Below the pieces are notes generated by a model that had not been told where the DNA came from, searched no databases, and saw only the letters and a program-made list of their open reading frames with translations. 64,000 nt of DNA from Octopus vulgaris (lineage: Eukaryota), in contig OX597826.1 in assembly GCA_951406725.2 (NCBI GenBank), forward strand, positions 82,026,001 through 82,090,000, in the 5' to 3' direction. Shown here piece by piece: positions 8,047-14,140 of this stretch. The first letter of the stretch is position 1. Each line of letters begins with the position of its first letter. A program made the translations under genes and the position numbers.

Positions 8047-8262
8047 TTAATTCTTTCTACCATAGGCACAAGGCCTGAAATTTGGGGGAGGGGACTAGTC
8101 GATTACATCGACCCCAGTGCGTAACTGGTACTTAATTTATCGACTCCGAAAGGATGAAAGGCAAAGTTGACCTCGGCGGAATTTGAACTCAGAACGTAGC
8201 GATGGGCGAAATACCGCTATGCATTTCGTCCAGCGCGCTAACGATTCTGCCAGCTCGCCGCC
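8047..8262 (-). mobile_element. SINE family B, full length, tail type 2
   Basis: The reverse complement starts ggcggcgagctggcagaatcgttagc, has the B box gagttcaaattcc and body gcctttcatcctttcggagtcgataaattaagtaccag, and ends cccctcccccaaatttcaggccttgtgcctatggtagaaagaa. Confidence 0.92.
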
Positions 8263-8934: not shown

Positions 8935-9635
8935 GGAGGGAGGGAGAGAGAGAGAGAGTGCGAATTTATCTATGTATACATAAATGCATTTCTAGAAAAA
9001 TTGAGAGTTGAGGATGGAAGAACAGAAAGAAAAACTGAAAGATCCAATAATTATTTCCTGATTTGTAATTTCCGATGTGTAACTCAGAAAAAATCCGAAG
9101 AAATTTCCAAGAGCAATTATAAATTTAAAAACTTCCGGAGGAAGTTCCTCGTACTGAAATTTCTTACTATCCTTTTTTTTTAATTATATATTTTGGACTT
9201 TACACTACAGTGTGGCCTTCCTTTTACAAAATGCTAGGCTTGCAATTGAAGGGATAGGATGATATTTCTGGCAGATGGAATGGTTATAGAGAGACTCCTT
9301 CACTGAACAGCTATTTCTTACGGAGACAACCTGGTCATGGACAAAACATTGTATTAGGCTATTATTTACGGATACACACACGCACACACACACATTACTC
9401 TCATATATATATATATATATATATATTATGTGAAATAGAAAGATGAATAATCTTGTAGTAGATTAATCAAAAGTTTAACCGATACCTTAGTAGCAAAAAT
9501 CACAGCAGTAAACAGCACGGTTGGAGGTACAACCATATGGTGTTGCAACCGTGCGTTGGTGCGGATAATTGAAATTAAAATATTATTGGTGAATTGAAGA
9601 AATGGAGCTGAACGCAGATTGAACAGAAATCGTTT

Positions 9636-9729
9636 TATTTCATTCTACACGTGTTTCGAAAGGCACAATTTGCCAAAATCCGATTGAATAATGGGACCAT
9701 ATTGTGTCTTTCTCTTCAGGAAGAAAATA
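9636..9729 (-). ncRNA. type I hammerhead ribozyme (minus-strand copy)
   Basis: RNA: UAUUUUCUUC-CUGAAGA-GAAAGACACAAU...AUUGUGCCUUUC-GAAA-C-ACGU-GUA^GAAUGAAAUA. Core boxes are intact, stem II has 11/12 pairs and stem I 9/10 pairs. Confidence 0.8.
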
Positions 9730-9889
9730 GGAAATCCGTTGGAAAAAACAAAAACAGAACAGAGGCGGAGCAAAAACAAATCGAACTAGGCTCCTAAGAG
9801 CCCATGGCGAAACTGTTTCGCCATGGGCTCTTAGGAGATTTGTTTTTGCTCCGCCTCTGTTCTGTTTTTGTTTTTTCCAACGGATTTCC

Positions 9890-9981
9890 TATTTTCTTCC
9901 TGAAGAGAAAGACAATATGGTCCCATTATTCAATCGGATTTTGGTAAATTGTGCCTTTCGAAACACGTGTAGAATGAAATA
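9890..9981 (+). ncRNA. type I hammerhead ribozyme (plus-strand copy)
   Basis: CUGAAGA at 9900-9906, stem II GAAAG-ACAAU...AUUGU-GC-CUUUC, GAAA at 9960-9963, palindromic ACACGUGU stem III, and a GUA triplet ending at 9971. Stem I pairs 9890-9899 with 9972-9981. Confidence 0.8.
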
Positions 9982-10027
9982 AAACGATTTCTGTTCAATC
10001 TGCGTTCAGCTCCATTTCTTCAATTCA

Positions 10028-10092
<65 letters not shown>

Positions 10093-10102
10093 TTATATAC
10101 AC

Positions 10103-10152
<50 letters not shown>

Positions 10153-10155
<3 letters not shown>

Positions 10156-10421
10156 GCGCAATGGCCTAGTGGTTAGGGCAGCGGACTCGCGGTTTCGATT
10201 CCCAGACCGGGCGTTGTGTGTGTTTACTGAGCGAAAACACCTAAAAGCTCCACGAGGCTCCGGCAGGGGGTGGTGATCCCTGCTGTACTCTTTCACCACT
10301 CGTTCTTCTGTTGGAACTGCTCGCTTAGCCAGCGGGGTGGCGTCATTCGAAGGCTAAAACAATGCGAACGCATTGTGACCAGCGATGTGTAACTACATTG
10401 GTCGGTCACGTTATCACGTGA
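10153..10421 (+). mobile_element. SINE family C (tRNA-derived head), inserted in (TA)n
   Basis: gaggcgcaatggcctagtggttagg (A box), ggtttcgattccc (B box), then the body aaaacacctaaaagctccacgaggctccggca shared with 26051-26366. Confidence 0.85.
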
Positions 10422-11219: not shown

Positions 11220-11410
11220 CCGTGCTCAGTTCTAATAATTTCAAATTTTGGGAAAAGGCCTGTACTAATTTTGTAGGAGGGGAAGGGATCAGTCGGTGAT
11301 GAAGTGATACTTGTTTGATCGACCCCGAGAGGATAAAAGGCAAAGTCGACCTCGGCGGAAATTGAGCTCAGAACACGAAGACAGACGAAATGCCTCTAAG
11401 CATTTTACCC
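11220..11410 (-). mobile_element. SINE family B, diverged
   Basis: atcgaccccgagaggataaaaggcaaagtcgacctcggcggaaattgagctcagaac is the reverse complement of the family B body. Confidence 0.8.
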
Positions 11411-13074: not shown

Positions 13075-14140
13075 TCAGAGCTTTGATAACTTTGATAGCT
13101 TTCGGCCAGTAAAGGCCCAGGCCATGTCTAACTCAACAGCACCCCCTGGTGAAGTCTTTTAGTCATATATGGGTCACCATATCCCACTCTAGCAAAGAGT
13201 TATTATTGTTGGAGAGATATCCGAGTGTAGGAGGTTGGTCCGGGATTTTTGAAAAAATTTGTCCAGTGAATTTTTGAATTTTATGGGATCCGTTTCCGTT
13301 TTGATGTATTTTGGTATGATATTAAAGAGAACTAGACCGGTTGAGGTAAAGTAGTTGTGATGTAATGTTGTTATGTGTCTGGAGTTCGATTTTTGTAGTG
13401 GGCGGATAGCACGGGGGCCAAGTCTTGGATGGATTTTAAAATTGATGCCAACATCATTTGTGCAATATTGATGGAATATTTTCCACATAACACAAATGAT
13501 GTAGCGCTCCAGGTGGCGTTGGAGAGAGTAGAGGTTGAGATTTTTTAGTCGACCCCCCAATAATCAATGCCTCTCATGCAGTCTATCTTTCTTGTTATTA
13601 CTTTCATAATGAGTTGCTTGTATGGGGGGGGGGGGCACAGTGGGCAACAGTACTCAAGGTGGGGTCGGGCAAAAGTAGAGTAGAGAAGGATGATGGAGTA
13701 GGCATCTCTAGATCGGAAAATTCTCAGAATCGAGGAGAACATCTTGCGGGCCAAGTCAACCTTGCTGTTTACGTGGGAACTCCAGCTTAGATTGTTATCA
13801 ACAATTACTCCAAGATCTCTGGTGTTGTTGGATGACACTAGCGAGTCGCCCGAGGGAAGAGCATATGGTAATTTCAGAGTTTCCTCTTTTCCAAAGTGGA
13901 TCAAATCAAACTTATCTTTGTTTAAAAGCATATTGTTTTTTTCCCACCCATTGGACAATAGAAAACAGATCTGACTGAAGGTATGTTCGGTCTCTCATGC
14001 CGTTTATGGCTTTCTGGAGTTTGGAATTATCTGAAAGTATTTTCAATGTAGAATGTTTGATGATATCTACTATGTCAGTCATGTAAATAATGAAGGGGAG
14101 TGGGCCCAACACAGTACCTGGCGGGACACCACTACTGATT
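13075..14140 (-). mobile_element. CR1-group LINE, 5'-truncated, RT C-terminal half plus 3' UTR
   Basis: ORFs 13912..14112, 13545..13958 and 13189..13560 give GVPPGTVLGPLPFIIYMTDI, KILSDNSKL (degenerate FADDxKL), RDLGVIVDNNLSWSSH, LYSTFARPHLEYCCPL, LKNLNLYSLQRHLERY and FKNSLDKF. Frameshifted. Confidence 0.9.

Follow-up and report, generated by a model that had tools for sequence, protein, structure and literature searches.

A hammerhead-bearing palindrome of Octopus vulgaris read as a head-to-head insertion of a Hydra-type Penelope-like element

A palindrome in the genome of Octopus vulgaris carries a hammerhead motif on each strand, which raises the question of whether such a locus is a functional unit in its own right or the trace of an insertion event. 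We addressed this question for the palindrome found in a 64,000-nucleotide stretch of contig OX597826.1 (the window), which a first-pass annotation had described, from the letters alone, as a young unit resembling either a Penelope-like element (PLE) or a retrozyme and containing a possible RNA switch. Almost certainly, the palindrome is a short, 5'-truncated head-to-head insertion of a young and abundant Hydra-type PLE. Each arm carries the hammerhead motif of the PLE pseudo-LTR (pLTR), and the locus is an ordinary one, one among hundreds of inverted stubs.

The palindrome and its surroundings

The arms of the palindrome, about 215 bp each, are identical apart from the central base, one substitution and two deletions, one of 9 bp and the other, in stem II, of 2 bp. 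Both hammerhead motifs are present where they had first been placed, with the predicted cut sites listed in Table 1: the CUGAAGA box covers positions 9900–9906 on the plus strand, where it is combined with GAAA-C-ACGU-GUA, and begins at 9719 on the minus strand. Several details of the initial description hold as well, namely a plus-strand stem I (9890–9899 with 9972–9981) of 9/10 pairs, including one G-U, as read from the sequence; an unusually long stem II, announced as about 50 nt, the core boxes being 53 nt apart on the plus strand and 55 nt apart on the minus strand; and an AAUAAA beyond each cut site (9978–9983 and 9639–9634). The 2-nt deletion weakens stem II of the plus-strand motif (−9.6 vs −15.6 kcal/mol).

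The insertion is larger than the palindrome, a point missed by the earlier annotation, since the left arm extends about 160 bp further, to position 9425. The whole stub measures 605 bp, is set in (TA)n, which adjoins both of its ends, and contains part of the pLTR and no ORF sequence. In element coordinates, where C3 of the hammerhead is position 0, the long arm runs from −94 to about +295. It covers the pLTR/5' UTR between the inferred start and the long 3' end (see below) and ends about 46 nt short of the ATG of the ORF (+341). A target-site duplication is unreadable in the (TA)n repeat. The private 9-bp deletion of the short arm occurs only once genome-wide.

Table 1. Coordinates of the insertion and its parts in the window
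Feature	Position	Strand	Basis
(TA)n target microsatellite, left flank	9403..9426	none	sequence; family copies end in (TA)n
Long arm	9425..9814	minus	97.7% to natural full-length copy; ends mapped
PLE 'tail', about 160 bp, long arm only	9425..9588	minus	two 3' termini, +130–143 and +292–296
Type I hammerhead motif, family-typical	9636..9729	minus	core from 9719, predicted cut after 9646, 55-nt stem II region
Inversion junction, native 9-nt near-palindrome	9810..9818	none	arm starts 9814 / 9815
Short arm	9815..10029	plus	element −93 to about +130; private 9-bp deletion near centre
Type I hammerhead motif	9890..9981	plus	core from 9900, predicted cut after 9971
(TA)n target microsatellite, right flank	10030..10152	none	sequence

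The Rfam search that had been suggested as a check did not recover the motifs: none of the 46 matches at E ≤ 10 was to a hammerhead family, and all were hairpin-driven miRNA models with scores under the gathering threshold. This miss is likely due to the combination of a long stem II and a loopless stem III.

Other repeats lie nearby. A repeat with a tRNA-like head, likely a SINE, directly follows the right (TA)n tract (about 10152–10415), and another dispersed repeat is present as two 104-nt copies with 79% identity (8123–8226 and 11302–11405). Further on, positions 13192–13994 of the minus strand encode a C-terminal RT fragment, which we take to be LINE-type, in two frames (DLGVIVDNNLSW and ARPHLEYC) split by a frameshift.

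The parent family and its hammerhead

With the right arm as query, a first look at the 2.8-Gb genome gave 1,534 candidates, and the 40 that were scored yielded 48 matches at 97–100%. The hammerhead core pattern has 1,791 exact matches in the genome (899+892), against none for the reversed control, so that the motif is not a product of chance. Among the first 100 core matches listed, neighbours at ≤7 kb comprise 21 divergent, no convergent and six same-strand cases; the divergent pairs are 92–5,359 bp apart (10 of them at ≤500 bp) and the same-strand neighbours 2.0–6.4 kb apart. Longer copies of the family continue into an ORF, and tandem units containing it repeat every 3,624 bp, the hammerhead lying, in the sense orientation, about 600 nt past the ORF stop, about 330 nt ahead of the next open frame and 341 nt ahead of its ATG. 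Seven copies have intact frames of 899 codons (895 aa from the first Met), with DNA identities of 98.3–100%. The proposed link to a PLE ORF encoding an RT and a GIY-YIG endonuclease is therefore borne out, as is the youth of the unit. Candidate source loci are found at L069–L072 (G000:C1:119.51–119.53 Mb and C3:111.17 Mb), where 3,624-bp units containing intact ORFs are arrayed head to tail and neighbouring units are identical.

The alternative half of the original proposal, a retrozyme-like unit, was abandoned: there are no tandem monomers of 150–450 bp, the tandem unit of 3,624 bp contains the ORF, same-strand neighbours are kilobases apart, and the deletion in the short arm is found once in the genome. 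Non-LTR retrozymes share with the octopus element a type I hammerhead and a kinship with PLE pLTRs, but they are described as head-to-tail tandems of 150–450 bp (PMC7229834; bioRxiv 10.64898/2026.07.22.740005), whereas the element studied here is inverted and tied to an ORF.

The 895-aa protein (P0001) is encoded by a single ORF and displays a YRDD motif (RT) and a C-terminal VY..YVG endonuclease (EN) motif. Pfam searches with this protein and six relatives returned no RT or GIY-YIG match, and neither did PDB searches with P0001, by sequence and by profile. Its assignment as a probable RT is based on motifs, on 411 homologues (best E 1e-128), mostly of about 700 aa and unnamed, and on leads to RVT_1 through Atlas clusters at 0.94–0.97, two of which carry RVT_1 on 17% and 48% of their members.

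The Hydra clade, as described in PMC8557442, is characterized by DKT and RWK motifs, a CxCX5C linker, (TA)n targets, canonical hammerheads and an EN that lacks CCHH but contains CxxC and CxH. P0001 has SDKT in place of DKG, in line with the DKT of that clade, and its EN reads by eye as CNLC..E..N..CPH, i.e. with CxxC and CxH beside the conserved E and N; copies of the family end in (TA)n, as expected of the Hydra target. Where Hydra elements have RWK, P0001 has RWL (RWK or RWR in the aligned relatives), and the region of the CxCX5C linker, a motif present in most aligned relatives, is in P0001 a low-complexity insert with one Cys. Two such inserts, rich in Ser, Asn and Gly (about 490–555 and 635–775), lie around and in the RT–EN linker, add about 190 aa compared to the relatives and appear to take the place of the CxCX5C motif; they are reminiscent of the N-rich inserts reported for bdelloid Penelope ORFs (PMC3846280). 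A by-eye comparison with published Hydra proteins gives motif-for-motif agreement. Motifs and likeness together indicate a Hydra-clade PLE.

Published members such as Hydra-1_Obim and Penelope-13_HM (PMC8557442) share with the octopus family the single ORF with RT and C-terminal GIY-YIG, the DKT and RW motifs, the (TA)n target, the CxxC and CxH around the E and N of the EN, a sense hammerhead near the 3' end and a stem III of the ACAC/GTGT type; for Penelope-13_HM, moreover, an inverted 5' copy is listed there together with hammerheads on the two strands. Differences are also found. Apart from the RWL motif and the insert at the position of the linker, the octopus unit (3,624 bp, 895 aa) is longer than the units of less than 3 kb given for the clade, and its 53–55-nt stem II is a real departure from the 3–7-bp stems with 3–10-nt loops of the 26 Hydra rows in File S2. 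With another hammerhead and a length of 2,507 bp, Hydra-1_Obim represents a different family.

Sister families (L013:851–970, L028:2838–2961 and L131–L164) are older and have the same long stem II hammerhead with a CUGAUGA core and GUC, GUU or GUA as cut triplet; their distal stem I is disrupted in the young family. A related core pattern has at least 604 further matches. AAUAAA is absent from sister family B (alignment A2) and was discarded as a conserved part of the element on account of this loss and of copy ends devoid of poly(A).

The CUGANGA, GAAA and NUH core and stems I–III of the motif are those of a type I hammerhead. As anticipated for a functional motif, the core boxes are kept across 14 aligned rows, hand-picked and related (taken from 58 distinct regions plus sister-pattern loci), six of which come from a pattern requiring the core and four of which are old copies found without it. 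Covariation, the other expectation, is seen in stem II, where 5/12 pairs change on both sides; stem I varies on one side only. In these 14 rows, 90% of cells pair, against 34–53% in slid controls; as the structure was drawn from related sequences, shuffle counts are not probabilities. RNAalifold, unaided, found nine stem II pairs, four of them compensatory. These alignments give the ribozyme motif the look of a sequence under selection.

In the predictions, stem III forms no hairpin but pairs with itself at −10.3 kcal/mol, which fits a dimer; in the sister families, the central C-G is changed to U-G and self-pairing drops to −6.0 kcal/mol. The hammerhead fold of the monomer lies 1.8 kcal/mol above the minimum. 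The ribozyme is likely weak or assisted, either by dimerization through the self-complementary stem III or by a protein.

Two 3' ends, a fixed start and the ribozyme cut site

Copies of the family terminate in (TA)n, without poly(A), at either of two positions, +130–143 (short) or +292–296 (long), both of which come after a similar TTCAC..ATAAT word. In inverted insertions, these ends are combined in a near-strict manner. The output for the first 47 inverted-arm loci, read by eye, gave one long and one short end in 44/44 resolvable cases (L055, L058 and L081 being unresolvable). A further set of 51 loci, counted after dropping seven duplicates and in which L128–L130 may be segmental duplicates, contained 39 resolvable insertions: 38 long+short, one short+short (L198) and no long+long. 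Pooled, 82/83 resolvable inverted insertions associate one long and one short 3' end. The sister families have two equivalent ends (about +120–135 and +270–294), with four long+short insertions and one short+short (L163).

The arms meet with an overlap of 0–9 nt or a short insert, and the 5' ends of paired arms are correlated (rho 0.87 for 17 pairs, i.e. 21 minus four complex insertions), lying within 25 nt of each other in 8/17 pairs where 1.5 were expected. Over 126 nt, the two arms are identical in 11/18 insertions, compared to 25/306 cross-pairs. Either arm can reach further and both orders are common, so that no priming order is claimed. Short-end arms often extend much further 5' than long-end arms, and in five insertions (L057, L088, L180, L184 and L191) the long-end arm starts past the short end, without overlap. 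One junction recurs at L191, L194 and L197 (and L184), where a short arm beginning at the start site is joined to a long arm from +242 to +249; it is a repeated microhomology joint at three or four separate loci.

At the other extremity, 27 small palindromes turn in the region corresponding to the centre of the one in the window, with centres that differ in sequence. In 16 of them (by eye), the furthest arm starts exactly at the A of −94, and six more, the one in the window included, are compatible with this start. Arm starts, counted as 21-mers preceded by a non-native base, number 61 at −94, against six at −96 and six at −92. The CAGTT context at −94 resembles an initiator. The base preceding the 61 starts is G in 45 cases, A in 12 and T in 4. 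Upon inspection, 29/30 loci proved to be true −94 starts, 22 of the 29 following a G, and where the partner arm cannot supply the preceding base, this base is G in 13/14 cases; the G share at three control positions is 6/33. At one junction (C19:9714765/9714788), both arms start at −94 after a G. In the window itself, no extra G is visible: position 9814 (−94) is the first of the minus arm and 9815 (−93) that of the plus arm, and a 9-nt overlap reaching −98, as in 6/27 junctions, reads equally well.

For L1 and SVA, an untemplated G has been read as the reverse-transcribed cap (PMC4859970). By analogy, we infer that the extra G marks a cap, and these DNA footprints make −94 a likely capped transcription start. 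Since the extra G lies at the 5' end of the sense strand, the template would be sense and capped.

The ribozyme cut site left no clear footprint in the copies, although a small excess is possible. More specifically, 22 5'-end matches fall at the cut, compared to six at the downstream control and 33 at the upstream control, and single-base arm starts number 17 at the cut vs 10 two bases on (P=0.12); a pile-up of 5' ends at this site was rejected on these grounds. A by-eye tally of tiny palindromes (50 of the 56 listed) shows 11 with a furthest reach of +72..+74, the same number as for a micro-palindrome located at +81/+82. Each of the 1,791 core matches extends across the cut, so that most of the RNA that was copied had remained uncleaved or had been religated. 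Altogether, the long+short pairing, the sharp −94 start with its G and the lack of a clear excess at the cut point to a template that was likely capped, sense and uncleaved. Note that in about ten tiny palindromes both arms start within a few bases of the cut, a lead only; in six tiny palindromic insertions (L114, L116, L119, L120, L124 and L127) both arms start 0–2 nt from the predicted site, some joints having untemplated bases, a pattern that is not significant compared to the controls. Arms starting at the cut are possibly a minor class copied from cleaved RNA.

Origin of the inverted insertions

We consider it probable, with good confidence, that the palindrome arose by twin priming on a capped, uncut sense RNA, giving a 5'-truncated head-to-head copy of a Hydra-clade PLE in (TA)n. 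The endonuclease of the element would cut both strands of the (TA)n target. Reverse transcription would then begin from each of the two cut ends on an uncleaved, capped transcript in sense orientation, probably with one primer at the long site (+292) and its counterpart at the short site (+135), each of which lies within the 5' UTR. The two cDNAs would cross the intact ribozyme, end at the cap (−94) and be joined at that point, the 9-nt near-palindrome assisting the junction. The ribozyme would act in the RNA cycle of the element. Devoid of an ORF, the stub is likely a dead-end product without a host role. We infer twin priming and a single RNA molecule behind both arms. We lean slightly towards the more specific proposal that a single particle uses two fixed sites, about 160 nt apart on that one capped, sense, uncleaved RNA, to prime the two target strands. 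The two short+short insertions, L198 in the family and L163 (1/5) in the sister families, and the junction in the window, where no extra G is seen, count against the twin-priming model, and the variants shared by the arms could also stem from a single active source locus or from gene conversion at a later time.

Work on the Anolis Poseidon element PAc (Frangieh et al. 2024, PMC11167929) is in agreement with the uncleaved template deduced here. In vitro, the PLE protein is reported to cut and extend both strands, reverse transcription has two internal start sites by which the tail is defined, the hammerhead is protein-assisted and the substrate is the unprocessed RNA; the AT-rich target is another common point. 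PAc belongs to another clade, however, and its starts, shown by assay, are 30–40 nt apart inside the start of the ORF, whereas those of the octopus family, deduced from genome copies, are about 160 nt apart in the 5' UTR.

The main rival is fold-back self-priming, in which one cDNA (or an antisense template) would turn at a micro-palindrome and the endonuclease would trim one end to leave the tail, the product still being a dead end. Micro-palindromes that are hot spots for junctions (stem III, +82 and +59), the native near-palindrome at the centre of the palindrome in the window and the private variants shared by the arms all speak for it, and an antisense template has been put forward as a hypothesis for bdelloid Penelope elements (PMC3846280). 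The extra G at the 5' end of the sense strand nevertheless indicates a sense, capped template, the junction on C19 has G-preceded −94 starts on both of its arms, and short-end arms that reach far 5' of the long-end arms, or do not overlap them, are impossible products of one long-end fold-back. We regard this mechanism as improbable, though worth keeping in mind.

Less credible still is the idea that the stub is an active non-autonomous unit, similar to a retrozyme or a MITE, whose internal outward promoter would yield capped hammerhead RNAs mobilised in trans by the PLE protein. The long arm does span the inferred start and both priming sites, an internal promoter of Penelope is cited in PMC8557442, and 27 palindromes share the centre region. 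Yet the 27 centres differ in sequence, so that these palindromes were formed anew each time, the deletion in the short arm is unique in the genome, and there are no short tandem monomers like the 150–450-bp tandems of retrozymes (PMC7229834). A self-propagating mini-element was rejected because of the differing centres and the unique deletion. Devoid of an ORF, the stub is likely a dead-end product without a host role.

As for the built-in switch initially envisaged, a host-selected device by which read-through RNA would alternate between a 215-bp duplex and a self-cleaving fold, its geometry is correct, the antisense arm being transcribed first from either strand, but the predicted read-through RNA forms on both strands a hairpin of about −410 kcal/mol in which stems I and II have a probability of 0.000, leaving no two-state balance, and the inverted layout is the default of the family with random arm spacing, the plus copy is already decaying after losing 2 nt of stem II, and a rough ORF scan of the flanks found no host gene, only repeats and the LINE fragment, so that such a switch is barely conceivable. 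With the antisense arm made first, the duplex would presumably also win kinetically; as far as folding predictions go, a regulatory role of the palindrome is unlikely.

The architecture is already known, namely head-to-head PLE insertions with a one-sided tail and pairs of hammerheads on opposite strands. EN+ PLE insertions often comprise an inverted 5'-truncated copy and a 30–40-bp tail at one end (PMC8557442, Fig. 2 legend; PMC3846280), with the same head-to-head arms and junction palindrome as here; the octopus family differs by its tail of about 160 bp, the near-strict long+short rule (82/83) and the cap-like G at a fixed start. Likewise, Schistosoma PLE remnants carry dual minimal hammerheads 100–700 bp apart on opposite strands, with a short palindromic stem III, which cleave poorly and are thought to need dimers (Cervera and de la Pena 2014, PMC4209133), whereas the octopus motif has a long stem II branched by an internal loop and a stem I of up to nine pairs. 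L1 twin priming (PMC4859970) produces the same inversion with junction microhomology, and an extra G at full 5' ends, but the octopus arms usually repeat the same sequence, both ends are 3' ends of the element and there is no poly(A). In the literature searched, with most subscription papers and Repbase outside it, we found no paper joining PLEs to twin priming or to a cap-derived G, nor this octopus family, its tail of about 160 bp, its long stem II or its cap-like G.

The interest of this family is that it is young, has intact ORFs and leaves insertion footprints of unusual cleanness, which bear on the origin of inverted ends and tails in PLEs, on the template strand and on the role of the hammerhead. 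If both arms are indeed made by one particle from one RNA, genome copies record the PLE insertion reaction: every inverted insertion would have one long and one short end, and the untemplated G would map the start to one base. Twin priming would then be preferred to antisense self-priming, and the hammerhead, despite its conserved 55-nt stem II extension, would stay shut on the copied RNA. For RACE and reconstitution, precise targets are offered by the start at a fixed base with a cap-like G, by the near-strict pairing of long and short ends and by the long stem II with its covariation.
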